Notes: generated by a model not told the origin, from the sequence alone. DNA of 64,000 nucleotides from an uncultured Gammaproteobacteria bacterium (GCA_964619625.1 CAZUFD010000001.1:59316-123315); one strand, 5' to 3'; shown: positions 4,007-49,112, counted from the stretch's first letter. Numbers and translations: made by a program.

Positions 4007-4007
4007 T

Positions 4008-4571: not shown

Positions 4572-4756
4572 CTGGCTGGCAGGAAATATTGAAAATGAAA
4601 TTTCCCTCGATTAAAGTTATAATACAAAAAAATAACTAAAGCCCCTGCCAAACCTTCCTCAATTTGACACCATGTCCATTCTATGATATCTTTCTCTTAT
4701 TAAAGAGCTTTCATAAAGAAACGCTCTTTTTTGTTAGCAAATTTTGTGCTATATTT

Positions 4757-4833
4757 GAAGTGAGTGAGCAAAGTAATTAAACTTGTTTTATTACTTTTGA
4801 GCGAACGAGAATATATGTGGCAAAGCCCATATA
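4757..4833 (+). repeat. Intergenic bipartite-hairpin repeat, copy A. An AT-rich hairpin, a GAGCGAACGAG spacer, then a TATATG-GGC/GCC-CATATA hairpin.
   Basis: Near-identical to 16464..16536 over about 73 nt. Related in reverse orientation to 9508..9590 and 13731..13812, and to 31741..31815. Confidence 0.7.
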
Positions 4834-9410: not shown

Positions 9411-9507
9411 CACCCGGTTTTTCTTCTAGTAAAATGAGTTCACTCTTATCACTCTATTATTTTGAGTGCTAATAACTTTAATTAATAGCAATTAACTATC
9501 TAAATAT

Positions 9508-9590
9508 ATAGGGGCTTAAGCCGCATATATTCTCATTCACTCGGAATTAAATTAAACACATTTAATTTAATTCGCTCATTCATTTCGAAT
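9508..9590 (-). repeat. Intergenic bipartite-hairpin repeat, copy B, in reverse orientation. It ends at the groES start codon.
   Basis: Contains ATATAT-GGGGC-TTAA-GCCGC-ATATAT and the perfect AT hairpin GAATTAAATTAAA-cac-ATTTAATTTAATTC. Very similar to copy C. Confidence 0.65.
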
Positions 9591-9875
9591 ATGCAAATTA
9601 AACCATTAGGAGATAATGTTCTGGTAAAGCAAATCAAGGCCGATGAAGTGACTTCGTTTGGTTTGGTGTTGCCGGATAAAGACGAGAAAAAAGCCGAAGC
9701 CGAAGTAGTGGCCGTTGGTCCGGGTAAATTGCTTGAAAACGGACAGCGCAGCACTATGGAAGTAAAAGTAGGCGATAAAGTGTTATTAAAAAATTGGGGA
9801 GGAGAAAAAGTGGAATTAAATAAAGAAGAGTATAAAATTGTTTCACAGGATGATATTTTGGCAATAATTCAATAA
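9591..9875 (+). CDS. groES: Co-chaperonin GroES
   Basis: 94 aa. MQIKPLGDNVLVK...GLVLPD...mobile-loop pattern. Sits immediately upstream of groEL. Confidence 0.9.
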   Translation: MQIKPLGDNVLVKQIKADEVTSFGLVLPDKDEKKAEAEVVAVGPGKLLENGQRSTMEVKVGDKVLLKNWGGEKVELNKEEYKIVSQDDILAIIQ

Positions 9876-9974
9876 GAGTCTCATTTCTTAATTCACAATT
9901 GCTAGGGTTGAGTAAAAAAGAAAATTAATTTTCTTTTTTCGAAGCCCGACGTAATTGCAAAGTTTTACTTTTAA

Positions 9975-13731: not shown

Positions 13732-13812
13732 TATATGGGCTAAAGCCGCATATATTCTCATTCGCTCGGAAATAAATTAATACATTAATTTATTTCTCTC
13801 ACTCATTTCGAT
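13731..13812 (-). repeat. Intergenic bipartite-hairpin repeat, copy C, in reverse orientation. It fills the whole prfB-stop to tsaC-start gap.
   Basis: Contains ATATGGGC-TAAA-GCCGCATATAT and the perfect palindrome GAAATAAATTAAT-aca-TTAATTTATTTC. Its reverse complement aligns to copy A over about 75 nt, with compensatory changes in the GC hairpin. Confidence 0.7.
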
Positions 13813-16409: not shown

Positions 16410-16463
16410 TGAATAAGGTTATCCCCATTAAACTCTTTCGCATACTGTGATATACTATATTCG

Positions 16464-16536
16464 AAGTGAGCGAATATAGTAATAAAGCTTGCTTTGTTAC
16501 TTTTGAGCGAACGAGAATATATGTGGCAAAGCCCAT
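16464..16536 (+). repeat. Intergenic bipartite-hairpin repeat, copy D
   Basis: GAAGTGAGCGAATATAGTAATAAAGCTTGCTTTGTTACTTTTGAGCGAACGAGAATATATGTGGCAAAGCCCAT is near-identical to copy A. Confidence 0.7.
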
Positions 16537-17158: not shown

Positions 17159-20100
17159 TTGCCAGTTTGGCGTAATATGACAAAGTTTCAAAAATTCGGG
17201 ATAAAATTTTTGTTAGCAGTATTTACCTTTATCACTATCGGCGGATCTTTGTTTTATGTTCAGCCCGCCAAAGCTTTTCCTGTAGAAATTACCTGGGATC
17301 CGGGCTATGTTTGGAGTGTCTATAAAAGTTTTATAAAAGACGCGGCCGTAAGTATCAGCATCCAAACTTTTTCTTATTTTTTACGTCGAGTCGCGTATGA
17401 TTCGGCAGTTTGGCTTGCTTCCGGAGGAAAGGGGCAGGCATCTTTTGCGTATGGAAAAAACTTCGGTGATTATTTAAAAGACGTGGGTGATAGCGCCGCG
17501 GGTGTGGCCATTGAAGCTTTGGGCGAAGACTTTGGTTTTAATTTATGTAAGATTCCTGACCCAAAAATAGATTTGGCTATGCGTATCGGGCTTACGTATA
17601 AATTCATGGATTTAAAGCCGGATTTAAATACTGGTCCGGGAGTGCGTGAGCCAACTTGTACCTGGTCAACATTTCAAAATGACGTCTTAAGCGTGGATAA
17701 TTGGCAAAGCCAGTTTGGGAGCTCCGATAGTATAGCTCGTAAATTTAATGTGGCTTTTTCCGTAGAACAAACAGATATTGGTATCTTGCGCGGCGCTACA
17801 GATAAAATCAATAAATATGTGGCAAAGAAAATTGAAGCCGAGACGCTGCAAAGACAAGAGGGCGAGGGCTATTTGCCAAAAACTACGCTTATTTCCGGAG
17901 ATATTCTAGCTCCGGGCAAGAACATTTCCGAGGAAGCACAGGCGCAGAACCCTAACAAGCAAATCGAAGCGGCCCAAGCCGGATTTTTAACTACCTTGGG
18001 TACGGGTGCGGTCGGCACAATTGCCAGCGCCGGTTCAATATTTTTTAACACCTTAGCTTCACAAATGTTAAAAAATTGGCAGAATAAAGGCATGCTGCCG
18101 TTTGGTATTGGTTGTGTGGCTGGCGTGGGTACCGAATGTAAAGATGTGCAAGATACGCTAAGTAATTTACAGGGACAAGTTTCTCGCGGCGGCAGGCAGG
18201 CCGCACAGGCTTTGTTTAGCGATCTTTTAACGCCGCCAAATATCGCAGTTGATCAGTATAATGTTTTAGTAAATTTTACCAATTGTCCTACCAGCCCCGG
18301 TCCGGATAATTGTGTGGCGGATGCCGGTTTGGCCCAGGCCGCTCAAGAGGCAAATTCTGGCCGCACCGTTACGATCGCTGAAGCTTTAGAAAAAAATTGG
18401 CTCCATGCCGAATGGAGGCTAGTTTCTCCGGATAGGGTAGCCGATAATGTAGACCCAGGCTGTCACCAGCGAGCGTATTGTTATGCCAATATCGCCAAGC
18501 TGCGTAAAGCGCGAATTTTGCCGCTTGGTTTTGAAATCGCAGCCTTAAACAGCAACCCGGATCAGCCATGGACGCTCAAACAGGTTGTGGACGGATTTAA
18601 CGACTGTAATTTTATTAGAGATGTAAATGGTAATGTGGTGGGAGTTGATAACGATCCGGTCAATAAACCGTTCTGTAGATTGATTGATCCAAATTGGGTC
18701 TTGAAAGCGCCGTCGTCAAAGTGTAATTTCATGGCTTATGGAACCAGCCCATATTTTTCCGGTACGCCAAATCGTATTCAGGAGTGTGTAAATATGAGTA
18801 CCTGTGTGGCCTATGATAAGGATGGAAATTGTGCCACGCAAGGATACTGCACCCGAGAAAAAAATGTTTGGAAAATAGACGCGGCTAAATGTGATTCGCA
18901 AAATCGCACCTGCCGTACATTCCAGGATAGTACCGGCAAGACTGTAAGCTATTTGTACAGAACCTTGGATACCGGTTTTTGTAATCAAGATACCGTAGGC
19001 TGCGCCGAGTATAGTTTAAAGCAAAATACTGCCGGCAATTGGGTTGGATACGCGGAAAATGATCTAGGCTCTTTAGGAGAAAATTCTTCCGTTTACTTTA
19101 ATAATAAAGTTTCCACCAACTGTTCATCTAATTCAGACGGATGCTCTTCTTTCCAGGTGGCCAACAGTTCAGAAAAATTATATCTCAAAAAAGCGCCATA
19201 TTATAGCCAGTGTTATGATACGGATTTGTCTACGGCAGCCATAGATTGGCCGCGTACAGCCAGCGATTTAAATAGGCTGCCAAATAAACCGGCTTGCAAT
19301 AATTATTCCCAAGCCTGTATTGCCGACGAAGTAAATTGTAATTGGTACTCACCAACCAGTTATACGGGAGACAATATTCCCGGCAAATACACCCCGGCTA
19401 CTGTTTTGGAAGGCCAAATAGTTTGGAACGATCAGTGTGATGCTAGATGCGTGGGGTATGCCGCATACAGGGAAATGCCAAGTAATTATTCCAACGGTCA
19501 ACCTGTTTCTTACATTATTCCTTCATCTGGCAATTCGTGTAACGCCGTAGATGAGGGCTGTGCCAGCTTTACAAACCTCGGCACAACCGAAGGCGGTTTG
19601 GAAAAAGTTGAGCATTATTCTTATTTGCGACCTTGTATTTTGCCCGACACCACTAAACAAAAGACATTCTTTACATACGAAGGATCGGCTGTGGGCGGTT
19701 TCCAACTGAAGAGTTTTGTTTTAGAAAAAGATACGGATGGCAGTCCTAAATATTTTTATCGCACTGCCGATGATTTGGCTACGTATGCAGCTACTTGCAG
19801 CCAAAGCCTCTATCAACAAGGCTTGGCAAATCCGGATTGCCGTCAATTTAATGATGATCAAGGGGCTGTATATTACAAATTATTGTCAAAGACTATCGCG
19901 GTTGCCAGTAACTGTACGCCATTTAGATTAAATGATACCGAACTACACGATGTTGCGTTAAATGAAGTCAATTGTTTGGCGCAAAGAGGAAAATGGGATG
20001 CAACTGCCGGAAGTTGTCAGGTATGTTTCCAAAATGGTGAATACCGAGACGGTGAGTGTTTCTATTATGGCCTGCCCGGAAGTACGCCTAATACGGCCGG

Positions 20101-23100
20101 TACCAGCAAGCCATGCGCCGCAGCGGTAAATACCTGCCGCGCTTATAAAGGAAACACCGGCAACAATGTCCGTAATATTTTTACCAACAATTTTGAACAA
20201 GCGGTCGCGTCCGATGCTTTAGCTGGCTGGGGACCATCCGCGGATATCGCGCAATCACTTGAATCAACCCGGTCTGGAGAACATTCCTTGTCATATAATG
20301 GCACAGGCGCAGTATACAAGGACATACTATTAACTCCAGGTGAAAGTTATGATCTTACGTTCTGGGCCAAAGGAGCGGTGGGAGAAACAGTTACAGTTAC
20401 TTTAGAAAATAATCAAGTTTCTAATTTGGGTACAATCAGTGTCGGCGATGCTTGGCAAAATTATCACCTCGGTCCAATAGAATTAGCCGGAAATGTTTCC
20501 AGTACCAAATTGCAATTTGCAGTTAACGGCCGGTTATTCTTGGATAATGTTCGCCTCAAAGAAGTTGCCGATTTTATCTATCTTGTCAAAAATTCCCTCA
20601 GTGTTGATCCGGTTTGTGATAGCAATCTAAACGATAATTTACCGGGCGAAGCCTTGGGTTGTTCGCAGTATCAGACCCCAGATAATAGGCCAATTTATTT
20701 AACTGGTTTTACTTCGCTGTGTCGTGAAAAAGCAATCGGTTGTACGGCAGTATATGATACGCGCAATACGCCGGATGAAGTCGGCCCACGAGCGTATAAT
20801 GTTTGGCTATCTGGGCCAGAAGGTCAAAGTACCAGCCGAAATATTATTGGCACGGAATATAGATGCCAGGTTGCGCTTGGTCAAAAAGGTTGTTATGTAC
20901 ATGTAACCGGCGCAAATTTAAGCGCTATAGTTGCCGGCGGAGGCGCGATAGTTACTTCAACTATATACGTGCAGCCAGATTCGCCAACTACCACGCCTCT
21001 ATATTTAGTAGCTAGCCGTGAAGCGACCTGTAGTCCGGTTGATTTAGGTTGTACGAAAGCCGGAAAACTGGTACAGACTCCAACCGGCCCAACGTATACC
21101 GAGGTAATAGTCAAAAAAGATCCGAGCAGTTTTAATACCACGCTTTGTCAGCAGGAAGCGGTTGGTTGTAACGCATACTCTTCAAGCGATGGGGCGCTGT
21201 ACTTTAAAGATCCGCAGTATTTAGGTCAAAAAGTTTGCGCTTACAGAGATAATATAACTAAAAACGGTGTTAGATATAATGGTTGGTTCTGGAAAGGCGT
21301 AGGCAAGTGTGGCGCCGGCGCCGTCAGCGATCCATTCTGTACCAAAGACAGCGATTGCGCGGCCGGAGTTACCTGTAATCAAAAAGATGAACAGCCGTGC
21401 TATCCAAATTATTTGCAATCCGGAAATAGCTACGGCCTGTGGTCGTATGGCGTAAGCAGTTCATATAATAATTTTGTGGGTGAATGTCCTGCTACCCAAA
21501 ACGGTTGTACCGAATTTATAGATCGTAATGAAAATAATAAAACATATTATCTTATTAATGATGACAGGTTAAAGACACAGCAAACTGAATGCAACGGACA
21601 AATCAGTGAAAAATCCGGTTGTATATTGCTTGATAAAACCGATTCGCCAAATAAATTATGGAATACAGCCGCTTCGTATGCGGCCAGCGCCGGCCAAAAT
21701 AATAATTTAGTCGCGCCAGTTGCTGGAACAGGTACGGCCACAAACGATGCCAATGTTATTTTGAAAGTCAGCCGAGATAGAGAATGTGGAGAGTGGCTCC
21801 AATGCCGATCTTCGCATCGTGTCTTTGACACGCAATCGGGCAGCTACAAAGAAGTTTGTGACGCCATCGGCCGCTGTAATAAATCTTTGGATTCATACAG
21901 CAACACCGACTTTATCAATTGCTCCAATTGGCTTGATAACAACCACGAACTCAGCAATCAGATTTTAACTGATGACGCGTACCGCAATCGCAATACCACT
22001 TGGAAAGGCCAGGACTTTAGCGGTTACAGTATTTTAAATACTTTCCCTGTGGAAGAATTGTCCGAAGTAAATGTGGGCAACGCTACCGTGGCCGATTGGC
22101 GTTTGGCCAAAACACTCGCTTGTGGCGGAGGTCCTAATTGCAGATCTGCCGCCGACCTTAATAGTCCATCTTGTAGATCAACCAGTGTTGGGTTGCCGTG
22201 TGGTCGCAATAATGCTGGTGTTTGTTTGGGTTCGGTAAATCCAGTTTGTGTCCAGGATTTAGACAGTCCGGCTGTTGGTGTTCCTCGTCAATCCATAGCG
22301 CCAAGCTGTCGCGCTTATCCGGAAGAAACTTCGCCGTTCCCCAATAGCCAAGCTATCAACGAGTCGCTTGCGTTTAATTCTGTAAATACATGTAATGAAA
22401 ATCCGGGCTTTAGCAATGATCCTGCTAAATACAACAGTTGTGAATGTAATTACACCAAAGTTACATATGGAGACGCAATCACAAAATATTGGAATTTCAG
22501 CAATCCGAACAATGAGGGTATCTTGGATGCCAATAATCAAAATTTACAAGGCGTGGTAAGTGGAATCTGTGTTGGCGGCGACAGCGCCGATCGGGCTTGT
22601 GATTCAGATAGTGATTGCGCTGGCGGAAGCTGTCAAAAATTAAAGAAACAATCTCGTCTTATCGGTTGGCAAGGATATTGTGTGGAACCTGATTTGTCCA
22701 GACCGCTTAATGCCGAACAAAATAGTTTTGCCTGCTTAACCTGGTTCCCTAAAGACAATATCACCGGCGCGTTTGATATAAATAATCAGCATGTGGAGGC
22801 CGGTTTCCAGGCGACCGAAACAAACGGTAAATATTACTGCTTGGAAGCAAAAGGTTATCAGGAAACTAATAGTAATACGGCGGTAAATGGAACGGGTGCG
22901 CTTACATATAACAAGCTTTTGGGGGGCGTGTTAGTCGATCATAATGGAAGTAATAATACTACTAATAGAGAAAAAAGAGTTATAGCAGTAAGTAGTGGCC
23001 GTCCGATTTATCGCGATGAGATTGATTATATTTTAATATCTCCTGGAACCGGTGGCGGAAGCTGGTTTCCAAATACCAGCGAACCTTTCCTGTCTTTCTA

Positions 23101-24757
23101 TATTAGAAATGGTTTGATTACAAAATATAATGGTCCAGTTTGGAATGTAGTAAGAAAGAACGGAAACGATCCAAATGAAGAAATAATTCAAAATGCTCAG
23201 CAGCTTTATAAAGAAGCTGTTAGTTTGGCACCTGGTCAGTATGTTTGGTCCGATGGACGAGATAGTAGATATTGGTATATACGTCATGATGATGGCCAAG
23301 GCGACGGTAACGATCATTATCAGTATGCTGATCCATATTCAGCTGCCACCGGCCCTTTTGCTGATCTGTTAAGATCAGACTGCGCTGGCAGTATAGATGT
23401 AAATGGTAGGGATGACTATCAAGGTGCTTGTTTAGGTATAAATGTAGATGATAACGATGATGGTTGTGCGATAAGGGTAGTCTTTGATCCGGATGGTCGT
23501 TTAAATAGAGTAAACCTGGTTTGTTTTACCGGTGATAGCGCTCAAAATGAAGGAAGATATTTCAATGTTTACGTAGGGCTGCGCGAACCTTGCGCCAATA
23601 TTGCTCAAACCGAAACAAATCCGTATACATCCGTTGGTTGGACAGACAGGTTGTGGCGTCAAAGTACATTTGCAATCCCAACATTAAATTATCGTAATTC
23701 ACTTATCAGTTCTCCATACGGTAGTTTGGCTATGCCAAGTTCACTTGTGCCGGATAAATTAATTAATCTCTTTACCCATTACAACAGCACTGTCTTTGAT
23801 CCGCCGCCTGCGGTGGCCGGTGCTCCTTATTCTTGTATTGGCACTTGTTTACAGACCAATCCAACGGCTCAAGAAGGTTTGTCTGGCACGGCCAGCCAAA
23901 GAACAGGTTTTCAAGGCCAAGAAAGTCTGGGACAAATTTTTGCCAAAGTTGATAATGTTTGGAATTGGGGCTTTAGTACTGTCAATTCAGCCTGGTCGTA
24001 TCAAGCAAATACAAGTCTTACTTATAACTTTACCGAAAGATCATCCGATGCCAATGCTCCGCAAGTCCGCGCTTTGGGAGCCTGCAGACCCGGAGGAAAA
24101 TGTTTGGAAGGTAATGTTGCCGGTATGAGTATAAACGATAGAGCCAGCGGTGATATCGTGTTTAATAGCAACGTTGGTGTTGTTAATGCCAAATTCTTTG
24201 GCTTTGCCAACCAAGATCAAATGCCAATTAGAAAAATTAAATTGGATTGGGGAGACGGCAATGTTGTTTCTCTAGACGGTTATTTCCGTAATCAGCGCGG
24301 CACTGTAAATGGTACCTGCGGATCTGGCGGCACTTGTCTGATTGGCTCGGTTGCCACAGGCAAGTCATGTTCCTCAAACAGCGATTGTACGAATATGGAT
24401 AATTGTTTTGCCGAAAGTCAGGCGCCAAACTTTGGACAGATTGCCGGTAAAACTTGTGACTCCGCCTATTTCCGATTTGATCATGTCTATCAGTGTTCTC
24501 GCGAAAGCAGTAGTTGGACAAATAGTTGTCCGAACGCGCAAGCCCAGAGTTTGTATGGCGGCTGTTGCGCGTTCCAGCCAAAAGTTCAATTAAAAGATAA
24601 TTGGGGATGGTGTAATGGAACTTGTACCGGCGGAGTTGGTGGCAATGGCTGCTATGATAGAGATTGGGGACCGGTGTTAGATCAAAGTTTAGAATGTAAT
24701 TCTTCGGGCGCATATACTCCGTTTGCCGGCAGGATTATAGTTATCCCGAATGATTAA
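17159..24757 (+). CDS. Giant (2532 aa) Cys-rich secreted/surface protein with a carbohydrate-binding-module-like segment; function unknown
   Basis: Single 7.6-kb ORF with an N-terminal TM/signal segment and more than 150 Cys residues. A CBM_4_9-like stretch (YDLTFWAKGAVGETVTVTLENNQV...LFLDNVRLKEV). The C-terminus carries short Cys-rich repeat patterns such as CDSDSDCAGGSC and CSSNSDCTNMDNC. Confidence 0.7.
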   Translation: MPVWRNMTKFQKFGIKFLLAVFTFITIGGSLFYVQPAKAFPVEITWDPGYVWSVYKSFIKDAAVSISIQTFSYFLRRVAYDSAVWLASGGKGQASFAYGKNFGDYLKDVGDSAAGVAIEALGEDFGFNLCKIPDPKIDLAMRIGLTYKFMDLKPDLNTGPGVREPTCTWSTFQNDVLSVDNWQSQFGSSDSIARKFNVAFSVEQTDIGILRGATDKINKYVAKKIEAETLQRQEGEGYLPKTTLISGDILAPGKNISEEAQAQNPNKQIEAAQAGFLTTLGTGAVGTIASAGSIFFNTLASQMLKNWQNKGMLPFGIGCVAGVGTECKDVQDTLSNLQGQVSRGGRQAAQALFSDLLTPPNIAVDQYNVLVNFTNCPTSPGPDNCVADAGLAQAAQEANSGRTVTIAEALEKNWLHAEWRLVSPDRVADNVDPGCHQRAYCYANIAKLRKARILPLGFEIAALNSNPDQPWTLKQVVDGFNDCNFIRDVNGNVVGVDNDPVNKPFCRLIDPNWVLKAPSSKCNFMAYGTSPYFSGTPNRIQECVNMSTCVAYDKDGNCATQGYCTREKNVWKIDAAKCDSQNRTCRTFQDSTGKTVSYLYRTLDTGFCNQDTVGCAEYSLKQNTAGNWVGYAENDLGSLGENSSVYFNNKVSTNCSSNSDGCSSFQVANSSEKLYLKKAPYYSQCYDTDLSTAAIDWPRTASDLNRLPNKPACNNYSQACIADEVNCNWYSPTSYTGDNIPGKYTPATVLEGQIVWNDQCDARCVGYAAYREMPSNYSNGQPVSYIIPSSGNSCNAVDEGCASFTNLGTTEGGLEKVEHYSYLRPCILPDTTKQKTFFTYEGSAVGGFQLKSFVLEKDTDGSPKYFYRTADDLATYAATCSQSLYQQGLANPDCRQFNDDQGAVYYKLLSKTIAVASNCTPFRLNDTELHDVALNEVNCLAQRGKWDATAGSCQVCFQNGEYRDGECFYYGLPGSTPNTAGTSKPCAAAVNTCRAYKGNTGNNVRNIFTNNFEQAVASDALAGWGPSADIAQSLESTRSGEHSLSYNGTGAVYKDILLTPGESYDLTFWAKGAVGETVTVTLENNQVSNLGTISVGDAWQNYHLGPIELAGNVSSTKLQFAVNGRLFLDNVRLKEVADFIYLVKNSLSVDPVCDSNLNDNLPGEALGCSQYQTPDNRPIYLTGFTSLCREKAIGCTAVYDTRNTPDEVGPRAYNVWLSGPEGQSTSRNIIGTEYRCQVALGQKGCYVHVTGANLSAIVAGGGAIVTSTIYVQPDSPTTTPLYLVASREATCSPVDLGCTKAGKLVQTPTGPTYTEVIVKKDPSSFNTTLCQQEAVGCNAYSSSDGALYFKDPQYLGQKVCAYRDNITKNGVRYNGWFWKGVGKCGAGAVSDPFCTKDSDCAAGVTCNQKDEQPCYPNYLQSGNSYGLWSYGVSSSYNNFVGECPATQNGCTEFIDRNENNKTYYLINDDRLKTQQTECNGQISEKSGCILLDKTDSPNKLWNTAASYAASAGQNNNLVAPVAGTGTATNDANVILKVSRDRECGEWLQCRSSHRVFDTQSGSYKEVCDAIGRCNKSLDSYSNTDFINCSNWLDNNHELSNQILTDDAYRNRNTTWKGQDFSGYSILNTFPVEELSEVNVGNATVADWRLAKTLACGGGPNCRSAADLNSPSCRSTSVGLPCGRNNAGVCLGSVNPVCVQDLDSPAVGVPRQSIAPSCRAYPEETSPFPNSQAINESLAFNSVNTCNENPGFSNDPAKYNSCECNYTKVTYGDAITKYWNFSNPNNEGILDANNQNLQGVVSGICVGGDSADRACDSDSDCAGGSCQKLKKQSRLIGWQGYCVEPDLSRPLNAEQNSFACLTWFPKDNITGAFDINNQHVEAGFQATETNGKYYCLEAKGYQETNSNTAVNGTGALTYNKLLGGVLVDHNGSNNTTNREKRVIAVSSGRPIYRDEIDYILISPGTGGGSWFPNTSEPFLSFYIRNGLITKYNGPVWNVVRKNGNDPNEEIIQNAQQLYKEAVSLAPGQYVWSDGRDSRYWYIRHDDGQGDGNDHYQYADPYSAATGPFADLLRSDCAGSIDVNGRDDYQGACLGINVDDNDDGCAIRVVFDPDGRLNRVNLVCFTGDSAQNEGRYFNVYVGLREPCANIAQTETNPYTSVGWTDRLWRQSTFAIPTLNYRNSLISSPYGSLAMPSSLVPDKLINLFTHYNSTVFDPPPAVAGAPYSCIGTCLQTNPTAQEGLSGTASQRTGFQGQESLGQIFAKVDNVWNWGFSTVNSAWSYQANTSLTYNFTERSSDANAPQVRALGACRPGGKCLEGNVAGMSINDRASGDIVFNSNVGVVNAKFFGFANQDQMPIRKIKLDWGDGNVVSLDGYFRNQRGTVNGTCGSGGTCLIGSVATGKSCSSNSDCTNMDNCFAESQAPNFGQIAGKTCDSAYFRFDHVYQCSRESSSWTNSCPNAQAQSLYGGCCAFQPKVQLKDNWGWCNGTCTGGVGGNGCYDRDWGPVLDQSLECNSSGAYTPFAGRIIVIPND

Positions 24758-24803: not shown

Positions 24804-24889
24804 TACTCAAAAGAAGAGATTCTTCTGTTAAGTTGAAGGCGCGGCTCGGACAGTTGAAGGTCCGGCTCGCGCTGGTTGATGGTGGGGTG

Positions 24890-25324
24890 TTAGCCGCATG
24901 TACATTGCTGGGTGTGGTTCGCCGTCGTGGTGCAAGCGAAGCGTCCGTCGTCCTGGAAGTCCTCCAAAGTCGGCATTGCCTGACATGCCTCCAGACAGAA
25001 GGCGTAACAGGTGCCATTCTCTACGACAAACCGCAAGGTGCAGCTGTTCCAGCTGTTATCACCGAGGTTGCACGAACATGCCGTTTGCGTGACCTGTGTG
25101 CGGTACATCGCACAGACATCCGTCGGCGCATCAGTCATGGTCGTGTTGGCGTCGGGGCAGGTGGCGGAGTTGCCGCAACCATTGCCGTCGGGGGGCAGGT
25201 TGCCACCATCCACTTCCGTGGTGTCGTCATCACCATCGTCGGGCGAACTGCCGCAGCCGGCGGTCAGTGCCAGGACCAGGAAGACGAGGGAAACAGCCTT
25301 CGTAACCGTGTAGTTGTAGCTCAT
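24890..25324 (-). CDS. Cys-rich (17 Cys) small lipoprotein encoded in a high-GC (about 60%) islet
   Basis: Lipobox LALTAGC after a signal peptide. G/C dominates third codon positions. The region carries overlapping ORFs on both strands, as expected for high-GC DNA. The minus frame is chosen because of the signal/lipobox. Confidence 0.5.
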   Translation of the reverse strand: MSYNYTVTKAVSLVFLVLALTAGCGSSPDDGDDDTTEVDGGNLPPDGNGCGNSATCPDANTTMTDAPTDVCAMYRTQVTQTACSCNLGDNSWNSCTLRFVVENGTCYAFCLEACQAMPTLEDFQDDGRFACTTTANHTQQCTCG

Positions 25325-25894
25325 CTGAGTCTCCTTCGTCGCTTATGGCGACTTGTTGGGAATTGGGTCGCCTTGGGCGACGAGGTAAGCGTGACGATTA
25401 CCTAGGTCATTAACTGCCTCGTTTTTCGGAGCAATTAGCGACCTGGGTAATCCCGCTTTACTTATGTTTTTTCCACCATCAATTATTGGCTAAATTTGGA
25501 GTTTCCTCTAAAGTTAGCACTTTTTAAAGAGCGTGTTATCTTACGATAACGACCAATTATAGCATATTTTCAGGGTTTTGTCAACCCTGGCCGTAGCCAT
25601 AGTAGGATGCACAAAAAAGTCCTCGCACGCACCCCATTCTTTGTTTGAGAAAATTTTTATCAAACAAAGAACAGGCACCTGCTATGTATGCGCCTACCGG
25701 AAAAATCATTCGTTTCTTATTTCTTAAATCATTATACACCCTATTGCCGTTATTGTTACATAGGCACTTATGCACAGCCCATAAACTCATAAAAAATATT
25801 GTTTCTTTTATCCACAATTCGCTTTTTTAAGCGGCTTTTTAATTGTTGACTGAGCCAAAATATGATACAATTACTTTACCATAATTGATACAGA

Positions 25895-35641: not shown

Positions 35642-35974
35642 TTAAAAAGGCAGTAGGGCGCGAGCGTCAGGATTCATCCTATCTATTGTCCATATTGGAT
35701 CCCATACCAAATCTACCACAACCTTTTTTACTTTGGGTAATTTTTTCATTTCTTCTTTTATTTGTTCAATAAGACTGGCGCCATACGGACACCCCATGCT
35801 GGTAAAAGTCATGGTAACAAGCGCTTGGCCATTTTTTATTTCTACGTTATAGATTAAACCCAATTCTACGATTCCCATACCCATTTCGGGATCAAAAATA
35901 GTATTGAGTATTTTCCAATATTCTTGGGTGCGTTTTTCCGGCGGCACGGGAATTATAGTTTTATTTTTGCTCAT
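35642..35974 (-). CDS. DUF59/MIP18-family Fe-S assembly protein (SufT-like)
   Basis: IFDPEMGMGIVELGLIY...TFTSMGCP is the DUF59 signature. It is the last gene of the suf operon. Confidence 0.65.
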   Translation of the reverse strand: MSKNKTIIPVPPEKRTQEYWKILNTIFDPEMGMGIVELGLIYNVEIKNGQALVTMTFTSMGCPYGASLIEQIKEEMKKLPKVKKVVVDLVWDPIWTIDRMNPDARALLPF

Positions 35975-36332
35975 ATATTTTTATAGCCTTTTGCAGGGCA
36001 TTTAATCCAAGCAGGGCGCATTTTAACCGAGCCGTGGTAATAGTAATGCCCAGTAGATCAAAAATATGTTTGGCTTTTATTTTTTTTAGAGACGAAATTT
36101 TTTTGCCTTCAGCGGCATCGGACAGAAGCGACATTGATGCTTGGCTAATAGCGCAGCCATTGCCTGCAAAACCAATTTTTTCTACAACATTATTTTTTAT
36201 TTTTAAATCAAGCTTAATCACGTCGCCGCAGAGCGGGTTGTGTTCGGTAGCAGTAACCGTGGCGTCACTAAGCGCGCCTGCGTGATGGGGGTGTTGGTAA
36301 TGATCAAGAATTGTTTCGGTATATATGTCCAC
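35961..36332 (-). CDS. sufU: SufU/IscU-like Fe-S cluster scaffold/sulfur-transfer protein
   Basis: PLCGDVIKL and GNGCAISQAS Cys motifs in the NifU-like N-terminal domain. Confidence 0.75.
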   Translation of the reverse strand: MDIYTETILDHYQHPHHAGALSDATVTATEHNPLCGDVIKLDLKIKNNVVEKIGFAGNGCAISQASMSLLSDAAEGKKISSLKKIKAKHIFDLLGITITTARLKCALLGLNALQKAIKIYEQK

Positions 36333-36333
36333 G

Positions 36334-37554
36334 TTATTTAATTTTAAAAGTTTTTAATACTTTCTTTAAAGCTTTTTCAGCCGTATCTATATCTTTTTTT
36401 GTATTATATATATAAAAACTCATGCGCGCGGTGCCATATACTCCCAGATAATTCATGAGCGGTTCAGCACAATGCAATCCGGAACGGATAGCTATGCCTT
36501 CGTTGTTAAATATCGTGGCAATGTCGTGCGGATGCACGCCGTCAATCGCAAAAGAGAGAACTCCACCGGCATCCTGAGGCTTGGAAGGAGAAAAAACTTT
36601 TACTTGCGGATAACGGCCCAGCATTTTTTTGGCATAGGCAAGTAGTTCTTGTTCGTGGGCCATAATTTTTTTAAATCCAATGTTGCTGAGATAATCTATA
36701 GCCGCGCCAAAGGCGATAACGCCCGCAATATTTGGCGTGCCGGCTTCAAATTTCCAAGGGCCGCTGCGATAGGTGGCAGATGTTGCTTTGACGGATTCTA
36801 CCATTTCGCCGCCATACATAAACGGCGTCATCTCTTCCATAAGAGATTGTTTTACATATAGTACGCCAACACCTGTCGGCCCAAGCATTTTGTGGGCGGA
36901 AAAAGCAAAAAAATCGCAATTTAAGTTACGGACATCGGTGGGCATATGTCCTACGCTTTGCGCGCCATCTACCATTACTTTGGCACCAACCGCATGCGCC
37001 AGAGCCGTCATTTTTTTAACCGGCACTATAGTCCCTGTTACATTAGATTGGGCAGTTAAGCAAACCAGTTTTGTTTTGGGTGTTAGCAGTTTCTTATACG
37101 CTTCTATATCTAAAGTATAATCGGCAGTTAAAGGAATGATATGTAAAACAGCCTGTTTATTTTTTGCCAGTTCTTGCCACGGCACTAAATTGGCATGGTG
37201 TTCTAAAGCGCTGACAATTATTTCGTCTCCGGCAGAAATATATTTCTGCCCCCAAGCCACAGCCGCGCAATTTATAGATTCAGTAGTATTTTTGGTAAAA
37301 ATTATCTCTTCTTCCGTACGCGCGCCAATAAAATCAGCAACCTTTTTTCTTACAGCTTCGTATTGTTCTGTTGCCTCTTCCGATAGTGCGTGGATACCGC
37401 GATGGATATTAGCGTTAGAAGTACTATAAAATTTTTCCAAAGATTTTAAAACAATTTTTGGTTTTTGGGTGGTGGAAGCATTATCAAGATAGACAAGAGG
37501 TTTGCCGTTGATTGTGCGTTTGAAGATAGGGAAGTCCTTTTTAATTTGCTGCAT
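36334..37554 (-). CDS. sufS: Cysteine desulfurase SufS (class V aminotransferase)
   Basis: The PLP-lysine region SAHKMLGPTGVG and the active-site region RSGLHCAEP. Start trimmed to MQQIKKDF to avoid an 80-nt overlap with sufD. Confidence 0.85.
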   Translation of the reverse strand: MQQIKKDFPIFKRTINGKPLVYLDNASTTQKPKIVLKSLEKFYSTSNANIHRGIHALSEEATEQYEAVRKKVADFIGARTEEEIIFTKNTTESINCAAVAWGQKYISAGDEIIVSALEHHANLVPWQELAKNKQAVLHIIPLTADYTLDIEAYKKLLTPKTKLVCLTAQSNVTGTIVPVKKMTALAHAVGAKVMVDGAQSVGHMPTDVRNLNCDFFAFSAHKMLGPTGVGVLYVKQSLMEEMTPFMYGGEMVESVKATSATYRSGPWKFEAGTPNIAGVIAFGAAIDYLSNIGFKKIMAHEQELLAYAKKMLGRYPQVKVFSPSKPQDAGGVLSFAIDGVHPHDIATIFNNEGIAIRSGLHCAEPLMNYLGVYGTARMSFYIYNTKKDIDTAEKALKKVLKTFKIK

Positions 37555-37558
37555 ACCT

Positions 37559-38281
37559 TTAACCAAGAAAATTATTAACCGCGGTACGAATAGTATCTTG
37601 AATCGTTGTGTCCGGTATATGTGCCAGTTCCGCTTCAAAAAATCCTTGCACTAAGAGTGATCTGGCGTGTGCTTCGGATAGTCCCCGCGAACAAAGATAA
37701 AATAAAGCTTCTTCGTCTATTTTCCCCACACTGGCGCTATGCCCGGCTTTTACGTCATCTGTTTTTATTTCCAAATTGGGCGAGGTTTTTGCCTTTGCCT
37801 CATCAGATAGTAATAGAGTGTGGTGAGAAAAATATGTATTCGCACCCCGTGCGTTTTTTTCAATCCGGCAATCTCCTTCAATGTGGCAGCTTGCCTGATC
37901 CGTGAGGCCGGCTCGGACCATGATTCTAATTTTAGTATGAGGAGCGCTGTGGCGAGCTTCTATCTTTGCTGAAAATGAATTGTTATTTTTTCCTAAGATG
38001 AAAAAAATACATTCGCATTTTGCTCCGCGTTCTTTGGCGTTAATAATAAAATTGTGCAAATCAGGCCAGCCTTCGGTGGCTAGACAAATCAAGGTTACAT
38101 CCGCATTTTTTTTCAAAGTAATCTGTCCGTGTGGAATTGTATTAAAAAAATACAAAGCCTGCCTGCCGCCGACAGTTAAAGATTTGGGAAATTTTGTCCC
38201 GATTTTGCTTTTGGCAAAATCGAGGATCCTCGATTCCGACTTTGAATCGGAATCGGGATAATTTAACTTTTTATTTTTCAT
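37559..38281 (-). CDS. sufD: Fe-S cluster assembly protein SufD (short form)
   Basis: A SufB/SufD beta-helix C-terminal region (HSASVGKIDEEALFYLCSRGLSEAHAR). Positioned between sufB and sufS. Confidence 0.6.
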   Translation of the reverse strand: MKNKKLNYPDSDSKSESRILDFAKSKIGTKFPKSLTVGGRQALYFFNTIPHGQITLKKNADVTLICLATEGWPDLHNFIINAKERGAKCECIFFILGKNNNSFSAKIEARHSAPHTKIRIMVRAGLTDQASCHIEGDCRIEKNARGANTYFSHHTLLLSDEAKAKTSPNLEIKTDDVKAGHSASVGKIDEEALFYLCSRGLSEAHARSLLVQGFFEAELAHIPDTTIQDTIRTAVNNFLG

Positions 38282-38287
38282 ATTAGT

Positions 38288-39706
38288 TTAACCAACTGAA
38301 CCGGTCATCTCCAAAGTAAGCAACCTGTTAAGTTCAACTGCGTATTCCATAGGAAGTTGCTTTACAATTGGGCTGGCAAATCCGTTTACAATAAGCGTGG
38401 CCGCTTGTTCCTCCGAAAGTCCGCGGCTCATGAGATAAAATAATTCATCTTCGCCAATACTGGCTACAGTCGCTTCATGGGCAATAGTTACGTCTTTTTC
38501 TTTAATATCCATGGTTGGATAGGTATCCGAACGGGAAGCCGGATCAAGCATGAGCGCATCACAAACCACGCGAGTTTTTACGTTTTTCGCTCCTTTAATT
38601 ACTTTTACCAAACCGCGGTAGGTAGTACGACCGCCATTTTTACTAATAGATTTGGAAATAATCGTAGAACTGGTATCCGGAGCCAAATGAATTGCTTTGC
38701 CGCCCGCGTCTTGGTGTTGGCCCTTACCCGCAAAGGCCAGAGACTGAATTTCTCCTTTAGCGCCTCGTTCACGCAAGATAACACTAGGGTATTTCATGGT
38801 TGCTTTTGAGCCTAAATTACAATCCAACCAAAACATATGGCCATTTTCATAGACAGATGCTCGTTTGGTAACCAGATTATATACGTTGCCGGACCAATTT
38901 TGAACCGTGGTATATTGCACGCGCGCGTTTTTTTTCACTACAATTTCTACAACAGCTGAATGCAGGGAATCGCTGGAGTAGGTTGGGGCAGTGCAGCCTT
39001 CCACATAATGTACCGAGCTGCCTTCATCGGCAATAATGAGCGTGCGTTCAAATTGCCCCATGTTTTTCATGTTGATGCGGAAGTAGGCTTGAAGGGGGAG
39101 TTCCACATGCACGCCCTTAGGCACGTAAATAAAACTTCCACCCGACCACACGGCCGAATTTAAAGCTGAAAATTTATTATCATGCGTAGGCACAACAGTG
39201 CCAAAATGTTTTTTAAATAATTCCGGATGGTTTTTGAGCGCGTCATCGGTTGATTCAAAAATAACTCCCTGTTTGGCTAGGTTTTCAGCCAGGGAATGAT
39301 AAATCATCTCCGATTCAAATTGAGCGCCGCTGCCGGATAAAAATTTTTGTTCAGCTTGCGGTACGCCTAATTTATCAAATGTATTTTTAATTTCAGCCGG
39401 CACATCTTCCCAATTGCGTTTGGTTTGGTCTTGGGGGCGAACGTAGTAGTGAATATTATCAAAGTCAATCTTAGACAAATCCGCGCCCCAACTTGGCATA
39501 TGTTTTTCCAAAAATATTTCGTATGCCTTTAAACGAAAATCCAACATCCATTCGGGTTCGGATTTTTGGCGAGAAATTTCTTTGATTATTTCCGGTGTTA
39601 GTCCTTTTTTGGCGGTAAAAACACTAGCTGTTTTGGTACGAAAACCGGGGGCATATTTATTGCCGGTTTTGTTAATCAGCTTTTTTGTTTTTACGGGAAT
39701 TGGCAT
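38288..39706 (-). CDS. sufB: Fe-S cluster assembly protein SufB
   Basis: 472 aa with the conserved SufB C-terminus ([26 protein letters not shown]). Confidence 0.9.
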
Positions 39707-39715
39707 AGGCAGTTG

Positions 39716-39900
39716 TTGTCATTCCGATCGAAGGAGTTTAGCGACTGAGTGGAGGAATCTCTGTCATCCCCCTCTGCCCGAGAGGGGGTAGGGGGAGTGG
39801 GAGTTGACAACTTTGGCAACTCCCTCTCGCTCCCTCTTGGTAAGAGGGAGATTACCGGACAGAGATCCCTCGTCGGCCAAAAGGCCTCGCTCGGGATGAC
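39716..39900. repeat. GC-rich 185-nt long imperfect palindrome / multi-hairpin element in the sufC-sufB intergenic region
   Basis: GTCATCCC at 39763-39770 pairs with GGGATGAC at 39893-39900, and GGAATCTCTGTC pairs with GACAGAGATCC. Internal hairpins are CCCCTCT-gcccg-AGAGGGG, GGGAGTTG...CAACTCCC and TCCCTCTT-ggt-AAGAGGGA. GC is about 58% against an AT-rich surround. Confidence 0.6.
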
Positions 39901-39912
39901 AAAATAAATTGT

Positions 39913-40671
39913 TTATTTCTTTATAAAAGACTCAAATCCGTCTTTTTCTATCTTTTTCAAAATTTCCGTGCCGCCGCTAGCAACAATTTTACCTTTGGAC
40001 ATAATATGAATTTTATCGGGTTTGATAAAATCTAAAACGCGAGGATTGTGACTGACGATTACAAGACCCATTTTTTGTTTTTTATGAATCGTATTAATTT
40101 GTTTGCTGACAATTTTCAGCGCGTCTATGTCTAGCCCTGAATCAATTTCATCTAGGAAGGCAAAAGCCGGCTGTAGCATTGCCATTTGCAACACCTCGGA
40201 TTTCTTTTTTTCTCCGCCGGAAAATCCGTCATTTATAGAGCGAGACATAAACGCAGGATCAATATTTAGCTTATTCATTTCTTCCCGCATCAGGCCGGCA
40301 AATTGAGCCGGAGCCATAGCCGGTTTTTTATTTTTTTGAGCAGCATGAATCGTATTTTTTGCGAGGCGCAAAAAATTTCCCAAAGCTACTCCGGCTACGA
40401 CTTGCGGATGTTGGAAAGCTAAAAATAATCCGGCCTGGGCGCGTTCGGACGGGGAAAGACCAAGAAGATTTTTTTTATCCAGTTTGGCCGAACCCATAGT
40501 GACGGTATATTTAGGGCTGCCCATCAGGACGGATAGAAGAGTGCTTTTTCCCGACCCATTCTGACCCATAATAATGTGAATTTCACCGGAAGAAACGCTA
40601 AAAGAAACGCCATTTAAGATTTTGGTGTTACCAACCGTGGCATGGAGGTTTTTTATCGTTAGATTAGGCAT
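39913..40671 (-). CDS. sufC: Fe-S cluster assembly ATPase SufC
   Basis: ABC ATPase with Walker A GQNGSGKST. The N-terminus (MPNLTIKNLHATV) and the 252-aa size are typical of SufC. Confidence 0.9.
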   Translation of the reverse strand: MPNLTIKNLHATVGNTKILNGVSFSVSSGEIHIIMGQNGSGKSTLLSVLMGSPKYTVTMGSAKLDKKNLLGLSPSERAQAGLFLAFQHPQVVAGVALGNFLRLAKNTIHAAQKNKKPAMAPAQFAGLMREEMNKLNIDPAFMSRSINDGFSGGEKKKSEVLQMAMLQPAFAFLDEIDSGLDIDALKIVSKQINTIHKKQKMGLVIVSHNPRVLDFIKPDKIHIMSKGKIVASGGTEILKKIEKDGFESFIKK

Positions 40672-45942: not shown

Positions 45943-46071
45943 AGTATATAGTATTGATTTTAGAAACTTACTATATCATAGGAAAGCGGCCGAGACAATA
46001 AAATTGACAAAATGATTCCGTAGGATTACTGTTATTATTGATTCTTTTTATGTTTTAAACAAGTAAAACGT

Positions 46072-47007
46072 ATGAAAAAACTTGCTATATATTTTTCCGA
46101 TCCCGAACCGATGGGCTACCCGTTTAATTCCAAGTATCCTTATTGGGAAATTTATCAAGGCATTATTAAAGATATAGAAGCGCAAGGGCATAGCGTGTAT
46201 GTTGTTCGCGGTAATTCATACCTCGGCAAGGGCGTATTTTCACATGGCTGGCGAGTTGTTGGCGGTGTGATGGTGCCGGTAGCCGAGCCGATTACCGTAG
46301 ATTTAATTTTTAACCGCGATGACAAAAATACCATTCCCGCAATTTACGATTGCCCGATCATAAATCATCCGGATTTGGATAGATTATGCGTAGACAAGGT
46401 TGAGACCGCAAAATTTTTTCCCGAGCTTTCGCCCAAAACTAAAGCCATTAATTCATACCAGGAATATTTGGATGCAATTAAGGAGTGGGGTTTTGGTCCG
46501 GAAGAAAAGATTGTTTTAAAAAAGAATTTTTTATCCGGCGGCCGCGGCATTTATATTCGTCCGATAAAAGAGGTTGCCGAATCATTGTATGATGACTGGA
46601 AAGATATTCTTGTTCAAGAATTTGTAGACAATTCCATTGGAATTCCGGAAATAATTGAAGGTTTGCACGATATTCGCGTAGTAACTATTAACGGCGAACC
46701 GGTGTATACGTTTGTGCGCGTACCCCCAGCTGGATCATTTTTAGCCAATGTTTCCCAGGGCGGCACCGAGATACCGTTAAGTTTAAGCAAGCTTCCGAAC
46801 AATTTGTTGAAATTGGTTGAAGAAATAAATAAAAAGCTGTCTCATTATAGGCCGAGTATGTTTGCTTCGGACTTTGTTAATTCTAAAAATGGATTTAAGT
46901 TGGTAGAGCTTAATTCTCGCCCAGCTGTCTGCATCCCTTCACTTTCTTCGGAAACCAAAAATTATATTGATAAGATTGTGCAGCTCCTTGTACAAGAGCT
47001 GTCCTAA
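46072..47007 (+). CDS. RimK-like ATP-grasp ligase, tandem paralog 1
   Basis: GGRGIYIRP...VQEFV...HDIRVVTINGEPV...ANVSQGG...ELNSRPAV ATP-grasp motifs. Confidence 0.6.
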   Translation: MKKLAIYFSDPEPMGYPFNSKYPYWEIYQGIIKDIEAQGHSVYVVRGNSYLGKGVFSHGWRVVGGVMVPVAEPITVDLIFNRDDKNTIPAIYDCPIINHPDLDRLCVDKVETAKFFPELSPKTKAINSYQEYLDAIKEWGFGPEEKIVLKKNFLSGGRGIYIRPIKEVAESLYDDWKDILVQEFVDNSIGIPEIIEGLHDIRVVTINGEPVYTFVRVPPAGSFLANVSQGGTEIPLSLSKLPNNLLKLVEEINKKLSHYRPSMFASDFVNSKNGFKLVELNSRPAVCIPSLSSETKNYIDKIVQLLVQELS

Positions 47008-47028
47008 AATTATTTGCTTGCTTAACCC

Positions 47029-47992
47029 TATGAAAAAACTCGCTATTTATTTTTCCAATCCCAAACCAATGGGCGATCCGTTTGATTTGCGATATCCATA
47101 TTGGCAGATTTATAAAGAAATAATTAGAAACGTGGAAAAACAGGGGATAGATGTATATGTTACCAGGGCTAAAGATTCGTATTTGGGTAAAGGTGTTTTT
47201 ACCCATGGTTGGAAAGTAGACGGGGAAGAATTGATAGAAATAAATGAGCCAATTACCGTAGATTTAATTTTTCATCGCGGCAGTCAAGCCACCATTCCCG
47301 CGACCTATGATTGTCCAATCATAAACCATCCGGATCTGGAGCGATTTTGCGGAGATAAGATAAAAGTAAACCAGGTATTTGCCGATATTTCTCCCAAAAC
47401 CAAAGCTGTTAATTCATACCAAGAATACCTGGATACCATTACAGAATGGAATTTTAATCCTGAAGACAAGATTGTCGTAAAGAAGAATTTTCTCTACGGC
47501 GGGCACGGAGTATATATTCGTCCGATAAAAGAAATTACCGAATCGCTTTATGAAAATTGGCGCGATGTTCTAATGCAAGAATTCGTTGATAGTTCGGGGG
47601 GTATTGCCGGGATTGTTGAGGGCTTGCATGATATACGCGTAGTAACTATTAACGGCGAGCCAGTATATTCGTTTGTGCGGACTCCTCCCGTTGGATCGTT
47701 TTTAGCCAATGTTTCCCAAGGAGGCGCGGAAAAGGCAGTGCCACTTTCCCAATTACCCGCGGAATTACTAAAATTAGTTGAAAGAGTAAATAAGGAATTA
47801 GCGCAATACAGGCCCAGCATCTTTGCTTCCGATTTTTTCAATTCCAAAGACGGTTTTAAATTGATTGAATTAAATTCCCGTCCGGCTGTGTGCGACCCAG
47901 CCCAATCTCCGGAAACCAGAAATTATATTGATAAAATTATCCAATTACTCGTACATACCATCAATAATTCTTTTAAAATTGAGAAAAATTAA
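47029..47992 (+). CDS. RimK-like ATP-grasp ligase, tandem paralog 2
   Basis: Start set at the MKKLAIYFSNPKPMG that matches paralog 1. The two align along their full length (roughly 60% identity by eye). Confidence 0.6.
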
Positions 47993-48324: not shown

Positions 48325-48500
48325 AAGTATTTCCTTCGGTGTCTAGATAATATCCTTGCCAAGCCATACCTTCTATGGCAAATTTTGGCATAGCCACCAC
48401 ACCGCCTGCGTCGCAGAACATCGCTCCGGCGTTCGAATCCCTATGTGACCAAAGCAGTTTGGTCACATTTATATCTTATTCGCTACACTTCGTTTCGCTG

Positions 48501-48585
48501 CGGAGAGGGAGGGATTCGAACCCTCGGTGCCTTGCGGCACACAGCTTTAGCAAAGCTGCACAATCGACCACTCTGACACCTCTCC
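48501..48585 (-). tRNA. tRNA-Ser (anticodon GCU), type II with a long variable arm
   Basis: Acceptor GGAGAGG/CCTCTCC. Anticodon arm CAGCT-TTGCTAA-AGCTG. Variable-arm hairpin GTGCC-gcaa-GGCAC. T arm GAGGG-TTCGAAT-CCCTC. Discriminator G, and no CCA encoded. Confidence 0.8.
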
Positions 48586-49022: not shown

Positions 49023-49112
49023 TGGCGGAGAGATAGAGATTCGAACTCTAGAGGCCCTTGCGGGCCCGGCAGTTTAGTAAACTGCTGCCTTAAACCACTC
49101 GGCCATCTCTCC
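49023..49112 (-). tRNA. Type II tRNA, Ser-like, with encoded CCA. The anticodon reads as ACU.
   Basis: Acceptor GGAGAGA/TCTCTCC. Ser-type D arm GCC-GAGTGGTTTAA-GGC. Anticodon arm GCAGT-TTACTAA-ACTGC. Variable-arm hairpin GGCCC-gcaa-GGGCC. T arm TAGAG-TTCGAAT-CTCTA. Discriminator G followed by CCA. Confidence 0.7.

Follow-up and report, generated by a model that had tools for sequence, protein, structure and literature searches.

A nested hairpin-repeat element between sufC and sufB of a Candidatus Magasanikbacteria genome as a probable relic of small mobile DNA

The 28-nt NTS repeats of Neisseria (CGTCATTCCCGCGMAVGCGGGAATCYRG) are bound and cut, solely as single-stranded DNA, by SsnA, a single-domain GIY-YIG nuclease of 94 aa (Chenal et al., 2025, Nat Commun, PMC11893778). 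In N. meningitidis, the GTC before the NTS palindrome governs cutting and the C after it governs binding (PMC11893778). The ssn genes are typically flanked by these repeats (NTS-ssnA-NTS) and have been termed IS-like, with present or past mobility only speculated upon. In addition, genes flanked in an NTS-gene-NTS arrangement in N. meningitidis are replaced less efficiently by transformation (PMC11893778). Patescibacteria and MITE-like doublets go unmentioned in that study (Chenal et al., 2025, PMC11893778). Other short repeats that are relevant for comparison include the NIMEs of Neisseria (repeat segments bounded by dRS3 inverted repeats), the BIMEs of E. coli (clusters of REP sequences), and MITEs such as Correia elements, RUP, and Nezha. 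To our knowledge, no Ssn-type enzyme has yet been shown to carry out transposition.

In the window (the whole 64-kb stretch of DNA that was analyzed), the suf genes form an operon, and all of these genes lie on the minus strand (Table 1), which a first-pass annotation of the same DNA had missed. That annotation had also pointed to an unusually wide gap between sufC and sufB and to a GC-rich, multi-hairpin palindrome within it. The width of the gap is confirmed, the coordinates and numbers given for the palindrome hold, and the inverted repeats listed for it were all found. As calculated from ORF and gene coordinates, the remaining gaps in the operon are 6 nt, one overlap, and 1 nt. The palindrome extends from 39716 to 39902 with 57% GC and is separated from the sufC stop codon by 12 nt and from the sufB ATG by 11 nt. 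For positions 39716-39900, the GC content is 57.3% versus 41.3% for the window, which is in the top 0.6% of 185-nt segments. When folded as the sense RNA, the gap reaches -98.9 kcal/mol (z = -8.9), a value that 0 of 200 shuffles matched, and the opposite strand reaches -104.3 kcal/mol (z = -6.3). Since both strands fold, the structure is a palindrome at the DNA level rather than a strand-specific RNA.

The palindrome reported in the first-pass annotation is thus real, but its nested composition from two repeat families and its link to GIY-YIG genes had been missed. The outer inverted pair (U1 and U2) consists of units with a GTCAT-palindrome-ATCTCTGTC layout and encloses an inner inverted pair (U3 and U4) of a second repeat type, in which a C-rich hairpin is followed by a GGGAGTTGCC tail. 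The outer units are 43-48 nt long and have the form (T)GTC - AT(Y)C(Y)...(R)G(R)AT palindrome - C - TCTGTC. The loops of U1 and U2 are both long, and that of U2 looks decayed. For the inner pair, the first three nucleotides of U3 (GTC) overlap the tail of U2, and the G-rich tails of both U3 and U4 end in GGGAGTTG(A/C)CAA.

Table 1. Coordinates of the suf genes, the sufC-sufB spacer, and the parts of the element in the window.
Feature	Position	Strand	Description
sufC	39913-40671	minus	TIGR01978, E = 3e-93 (NCBIfam); upstream gene of the junction
sufC-sufB spacer	39707-39912		206 nt; contains the element
sufB	38288-39706	minus	TIGR01980, E = 8e-216 (NCBIfam); downstream gene of the junction
sufD	37559-38281	minus	NCBIfam
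sufS	36334-37638	minus	NCBIfam
sufU	35961-36332	minus	NCBIfam
Outer unit U1	39858-39900	minus	GTCATCCCGAGCGAGGCCTTTTGGCCGACGAGGGATCTCTGTC; GTC head, ATCCC...GGGAT palindrome, then C, CTCTGTC tail
Outer unit U2	39718-39765	plus	GTCATTCCGATCGAAGGAGTTTAGCGACTGAGTGGAGGAATCTCTGTC; inverted partner of U1; ATTCC...GGAAT palindrome, degenerate long loop
Inner unit U3	39763-39810	plus	8-bp hairpin CCCCCTCT/AGAGGGGG, G-rich tail TAGGGGGAGTGGGAGTTGACAA
Inner unit U4	39813-39855	minus	GTAATCTCCCTCTTACCAAGAGGGAGCGAGAGGGAGTTGCCAA; hairpin TCCCTCTT/AAGAGGGA; tail-to-tail with U3
Outer arms, paired	39716-39742 / 39876-39902		
14-nt arms	39752-39765 / 39858-39871		93% match
Perfect hairpins	39768-39788 and 39830-39850		8-9 bp
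Central inverted pair	39795-39810 / 39813-39828		16 nt

The units resemble the NTS/SRM repeats in having a palindrome with AT as its first bases, immediately preceded by GTC and immediately followed by C, in being dispersed, mostly intergenic, and multi-copy, and in occurring as inverted units around a small (94-99 aa) single-domain GIY-YIG gene. Both the GTC head and the trailing C are present in the outer units (GTC-ATCCC...GGGAT-C in U1 and GTC-ATTCC...GGAAT-C in U2). The inner units differ in this respect, as U3 has the GTC but lacks the trailing C and U4 starts with GTA. Unlike the NTS/SRM repeats, the units described here belong to a host of the CPR/Patescibacteria. Moreover, the stem in the window has just 5 bp, the loops are long and either GA-rich or hairpin-bearing, the ATCTCTGTC tail is conserved, and the window copy lacks a gene and consists of an inverted doublet into which a second repeat is nested. 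The published SRM expression, HGTCWYN(0-2)YYVSBRHN(0-5)WNVSBRGN(0-2)RNCYNB, has 0 matches on either strand of the window, and a canonical NTS included as a positive control was found; the element therefore falls outside the strict published definition of SRMs. The same expression has one match in L001, a sequence from a close relative (18772-18800, TGTCATTCCCGCCGCAAGCGGGAATCTAG), and this match is a near-canonical NTS. By analogy, the element probably works like the NTS/SRM-Ssn system and is related to it.

Similar to NIMEs and BIMEs, the element is a non-coding mosaic of more than one short hairpin repeat type, is found in intergenic spacers including those inside operons, and varies in composition between strains. 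The unit sequences differ from those of both groups. Furthermore, the partner enzyme of BIMEs is a Y1 transposase (RAYT), and no IHF or gyrase sites are known for the suf element. Like MITEs, the element is non-coding and 70-190 nt long, its terminal inverted repeats are identical to those of a related element that carries a gene, and close relatives differ in whether it is inserted; nesting and co-transcription with flanking genes are further shared features. The differences are that a target-site duplication was not detected and that the gene of the partner, whose mobility is putative, encodes a GIY-YIG nuclease rather than a DDE transposase.

The SufB protein encoded in the window has 100% identity to P0001, 94% to P0002 (Candidatus Magasanikbacteria), and 91% to P0003. 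These identities place the host in Candidatus Magasanikbacteria of the CPR/Patescibacteria. The sufC-sufB junction has no filling in the relatives L007 (SufB identity 85%, gap 2 nt), L008 (82%, 11 nt), L089 and L090 (86%, 11 nt), and L091 (87%, 1 nt). Such junctions of 1-11 nt in relatives with 82-87% SufB identity indicate that the ancestral junction was tight. Among the closer relatives, L001 (GCA_016182085.1; SufB identity 94%) has a gap of 197 nt, in which the outer units are homologous to U1/U2 and the inner insert is a different one, namely a perfect doublet of near-canonical Neisseria-type NTS units in the loop (GTCATTCCCGCCACAGCGGGAATCCAG...). In L002 and L006 (91%), the gap of 111 nt holds a plain 71-nt doublet of another subtype, which in L002 has ATCCT/AGGAT and ATTCT/AGAAT stems and a GGATCCCT tail. 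Three members of the clade (the window, L001, and L002) thus have three different fillings at the same junction. The insert appears to be confined to this small Magasanikbacteria clade, and the composite was probably inserted in the recent ancestry of the clade. As a separate observation, the SufB of P0004, an 86% identical relative (JGI 3300050046), has an N-terminal extension of 34 aa (VCGFLQRQSPTPTEGGRYSDRF...), which suggests that another sufC-sufB insert of ~110 nt may have been translated by the gene caller.

The repeat families are dispersed well beyond this junction. In L002, a stretch of 21 kb contains five doublets of 68-79 nt: three occupy suf gaps (sufC-sufB, sufD-sufS, and sufS-sufU), and two lie near type-IV secretion genes. 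L001 has three sites, one of which is also nested. The copy density is one per 64 kb in the window versus about five per 21 kb in L002, and no repeat units were found in L007, L008, or L089. A metagenome scan with a pattern for the right-hand unit (GACAGAGATTCCTCN{10,35}GGAATGAC) found this arrangement (GACAGAGATTCCTC..GGAATGAC), which is matched by U2, in at least 120 contigs; the matching contigs listed are mostly low-GC and from 0.1/0.2-um groundwater filtrates, and many of the matches come from the Hainich H43 groundwater time series. An inverted GTCATYCY partner is present within 200 nt for 64 of the 128 matches listed. Among these listed matches, L106, L138, and L167 contain uninterrupted versions of the outer pair of the window, with a left unit (GTCATCCCGAGCGAGGCCTTAGCCGACGAGGGATCTCTGTCC) that differs from U1 in the loop only. 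Also among the listed matches, nested composites were found in L104, L124, L146, L173, and L204, with an NTS-like doublet inside the loop in L124, L146, L173, and L204 and a G-tail unit inside the loop in L104 and L204. The join between the two families in the window (...GGGCAGAGGGGGAT|GACAGAGATTCC) is also present in L150.

The inner units constitute a dispersed family of their own. The first 37 nt of U3 are identical to a free-standing copy in L104 (827-863), and the whole inner doublet has 81% identity (74/91) to a free-standing doublet in the same contig (827-914). Units near-identical to U4 are present in L150, L180, and L124, and looser relatives of the inner units were found in one viral contig. 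Separately, single units (GTCATCCCGAGCGAGCGAAGCGACGAGGGATCTC and GTCATCCTGAGCGGAGCGAAGGATCT) are present in GC-rich IMG/VR contigs classed as viral (L086 8298-8470 and L087 8290-8340), which indicates that this type of unit reaches well beyond CPR bacteria.

Within the 64-kb window, searches with the terminal inverted repeats and the inner sequence (up to 3 mismatches) found no second copy of the element. The window has a second, AT-rich repeat family, to which the suf element is unrelated, in agreement with the first-pass annotation. This family, which is probably what that annotation referred to as bipartite repeats, includes one pair of 82 nt (4749-4830 and 16455-16536, 89% identity) and a second pair of 49 nt (9507-9555 and 13732-13780, 92% identity) whose sequence is similar, in reverse complement, to the 3' part of the first pair. 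Two other features of the window were observed. A GC-rich island at 24820-25400, with up to 66% GC in 185-nt segments versus 41% for the window, looks horizontally acquired; it holds a minus-strand ORF of 144 aa (24890-25324) that is Cys-rich, has a lipoprotein-like N-terminus, and lies directly after an ORF of 2532 aa (17159-24757). A tandem duplication of ~961 nt at 46066-47955 (72-76% identity) probably corresponds to a pair of ATP-grasp/RimK-type paralogs, in line with the annotation of the syntenic L001 region.

For the outer family, the structure that is maintained was assessed by covariation. Among 201 distinct units anchored on GTCAT and the tail only, 169 show full complementarity within the unit at all three variable stem positions, compared with 66 on average and 82 at most for shuffled partners; the ATTCC class is overrepresented owing to the search pattern, a bias that does not affect the other 72 units. 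Six compensatory stem variants were found (ATTCC/GGAAT, ATCCC/GGGAT, ATTTC/GAAAT, ATCCT/AGGAT, ATTCT/AGAAT, and ATCTC/GAGAT). The two partners of a doublet often differ in type, as U1 and U2 do, and are then mismatched in the long hairpin. For this reason, conservation acts on the palindrome of the unit rather than on the long RNA helix, a pattern that would be expected for a hairpin recognized by a protein in single-stranded DNA. Under standard DNA parameters, the outer units alone fold no better than shuffles (z = -0.6 and +0.3), such that the case for a unit hairpin is made by the covariation only. The canonical loop (GAGCGAAGCGA) contains tandem G-A pairs and the GCGAAGC mini-hairpin, which is reportedly very stable; standard DNA parameters do not reward these features.

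In six of six independent Patescibacteria loci (L108; L212/L213; L214/L215; L216; L217-L219), inverted units flank a GIY-YIG gene exactly on both sides. These genes encode single-domain GIY-YIG proteins of 96-99 aa, and the layout of the ~0.4-kb cassette is unit, ~10 nt, ATG...stop, ~5 nt, and inverted unit. For example, the 98-aa gene of L108 is arranged as GTCATTCCGA...GAGGAATCTCTGTCC aat ATG ... TAA cgg GACAGAGATCCCTC...GGGATGAC. Homologs of the L108 protein are abundant in Patescibacteria, and several are from named Magasanikbacteria. The units of L217-L219 are of the GGATCCCT-tail subtype, as in the L002 doublet. For the proteins from CPR bacteria, Pfam PF01541 is the only family recorded, no NCBIfam match was found, and the best PDB match is a UPF0213 protein (E = 9e-4). 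The conserved end segments of the GIY-YIG element in L212 recur without change in the window: GTCATCCCGA...GAGGGATCTCTGTCC of its left end in U1, and GACAGAGATTCCTC...CGGAATGAC of its right end in U2. Empty sites also exist for the gene-bearing element, as leuS and comEC are direct neighbors in L149 and L175 and are split by the cassette in L212, with its GIY-YIG gene at 3980-4279. Given the end segments common to the cassette and the doublets, together with the empty sites of the cassette, the doublets are best read as gene-less derivatives, and the outer pair in the window as a gene-less, MITE-like form of the ~0.4-kb GIY-YIG cassette.

The 64-kb window has no GIY-YIG gene according to tblastn searches with three queries and a motif scan. 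L214 belongs to GCA_016182085.1, as does L001, and the closest sequenced relative of the window therefore encodes the candidate enzyme. In this L214 region (9247-9936), the unit-flanked Ssn-like gene of 97 aa, located at 9287-9580, directly precedes a GIY-YIG gene of 80 aa, behind which lies an NTS-like doublet, such that two GIY-YIG types and two repeat types are found within 700 nt, beside a PIF1 helicase gene. Two 80-aa GIY-YIG genes near suf in L002 were considered as a possible partner and rejected, as they belong to a different, tRNA-linked cassette without GTCAT units. These two genes (L002 3270-4700; also in L006 and L003) are 91% identical, and each is immediately 3' of a tRNA gene. 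Both have the same leader of ~130 nt, and both are followed by a duplicate of the tRNA 3' end. They represent a tRNA-targeting GIY-YIG cassette that differs from the Ssn-like genes. The tRNA-Ser genes of the window (48500-48585 and 49023-49112) do not have that cassette.

Based on these findings, the element in the sufC-sufB junction is, with a probability of roughly 0.8, a relic of small mobile DNA in which two families of intergenic hairpin repeats are nested. The loop of the doublet would correspond to the place that is occupied by the gene in the full-length form, and in the window a doublet of the second repeat would have taken this place. The composite would have been inserted into a junction that was originally 1-11 nt long. 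The GIY-YIG enzyme may recognize the units when they form hairpins in single-stranded DNA, much as SsnA recognizes NTS repeats in Neisseria, and this enzyme, or recombination between copies, would spread and reshuffle them. That an Ssn-like enzyme is the mobilizing or recognizing factor is somewhat favored by this analogy. In the window, L001, and L002, the element is not bordered by any direct repeat that could represent a target-site duplication. In nine of nine inspected copies, a T precedes GTCAT and an A follows ATGAC, and these two bases read as lengthening the inverted repeat. A miniature inverted-repeat mobile element had been one of the possibilities raised in the first-pass annotation, and it is the one that is borne out: the same family is present at many unrelated intergenic sites in close relatives and in at least 120 metagenomic contigs, slightly more distant relatives have an empty and tight sufC-sufB junction, and gene-carrying versions have the same termini.

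With regard to the expression of the operon, no terminator-like site (a hairpin followed by a U-tract on the sense strand) was found in 39707-39912, where the sense strand runs on as ...GGAATGACAACAACTGCCTATG. A scan of the same gap for promoter-like sites found none, and such sites were found upstream of sufC. No covariance model of Rfam 15 matches the element at the gathering score, and at E <= 1 there are just sub-threshold look-alikes of eukaryotic miRNA hairpins, which were judged spurious. Because the gap lacks a terminator and a promoter and the element has no Rfam family, the element is most likely co-transcribed with the suf operon as a passenger. In the folded mRNA, the long hairpin would put the sufC stop codon and the sufB start codon at the base of one helix. 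This proximity may preserve some coupling between the two genes, which could be the reason that the insertion was tolerated. If the element has any effect on mRNA stability or on the translational coupling of sufB, that effect would be a side effect.

One such side effect, which is compatible with the mobile-relic explanation, is that of REP/BIME-like sequences, in which a hairpin in the mRNA would block 3'-5' exonucleases, stabilize the sufC segment, and shift the sufC:sufB ratio. The REP sequence in malE-malF is reportedly a precedent for such a role. By analogy with that precedent, an exapted function of this kind is conceivable for a very stable hairpin without a terminator tail inside a polycistronic unit, and three suf gaps of L002 contain doublets. 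However, presence and absence vary among close relatives, so no constant requirement is evident, and this effect is rather unlikely.

Alternatively, the units may be markers of genome dynamics rather than selfish DNA. By analogy with Neisseria, single-stranded DNA entering the cell would be cut at the units by the Ssn of the host, and transformation would replace unit-flanked genes, here suf, less efficiently. Such an effect was shown for NTS-gene-NTS in N. meningitidis (PMC11893778), CPR genomes carry comEC, which adjoins the ssn element in L212, and several units bracket suf genes in L002. However, the window has one element, hence no gene is bracketed, and this explanation alone does not account for the insertion polymorphisms. 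It is considered improbable.

The first-pass annotation had also proposed an intra-operon attenuator, a processing site that decouples sufC from sufBDSU, and a structured RNA that responds to iron or oxidative stress. A dedicated cis-regulatory RNA of this kind gains some credit from being transcribed inside the operon, from the folding energy of the sense RNA (-98.9 kcal/mol, z = -8.9), and from the presence of some structured insert at the junction in all three clade members. However, these three inserts are unlike each other in sequence and architecture, the same repeats occur at unrelated intergenic sites, and the junction is only 1-11 nt in relatives with 82-87% SufB identity. The attenuator, the processing site, and the iron or oxidative-stress RNA are all contradicted by the lack of a U-tract terminator, a promoter, and an Rfam family, by the lack of sequence conservation at the site (three fillings in three relatives), and by the symmetry of the palindrome on the two strands, which fold equally well. 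With no terminator, promoter, Rfam family, or site-specific conservation, a dedicated regulatory role is not supported, and nothing favors a suf-specific sensor. This explanation is very improbable and already largely refuted.

REPINs have the same architecture as the element, with hairpin units arranged as an inverted doublet and a 5' head that is conserved. The element might be a doublet of the REPIN or REP type that is mobilized by a RAYT (IS200/IS605-type Y1 transposase) instead of a GIY-YIG enzyme. This explanation is very improbable because the unit head is GTCAT rather than GTAG, every gene found between such units is GIY-YIG (6/6), and no Y1 transposase was seen beside units in ~2.3 Mb of loci inspected without a systematic HMM scan.

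For suf biology, the nested mobile-repeat relic carries little weight, as the insert is a passenger rather than a regulator. For annotation, such elements should not be called sRNA or translated as spurious ORFs, as apparently occurred in P0004. What is new is that the element is a member, in CPR bacteria, of a recently described kind of repeat. The filled and empty sites, the gene-less doublets with shared termini, and the recurrent nesting are what mobility predicts, and they fit the speculation by Chenal et al. (2025). The loci described here supply substrates and proteins for testing whether Ssn cassettes are transposons. More tentatively, and with some doubt, the unit-ssn-unit cassette may be an autonomous single-stranded DNA transposon with a GIY-YIG nuclease of ~97 aa as its sole gene, and the doublets of 70-190 nt may be its MITEs, with a preference for the loops of existing doublets. 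If true, this cassette would be the smallest known IS-like element. Its family would also be the first among transposons to be driven by a single-strand nuclease of the GIY-YIG type, and it would be active in CPR bacteria, whose genomes are streamlined.
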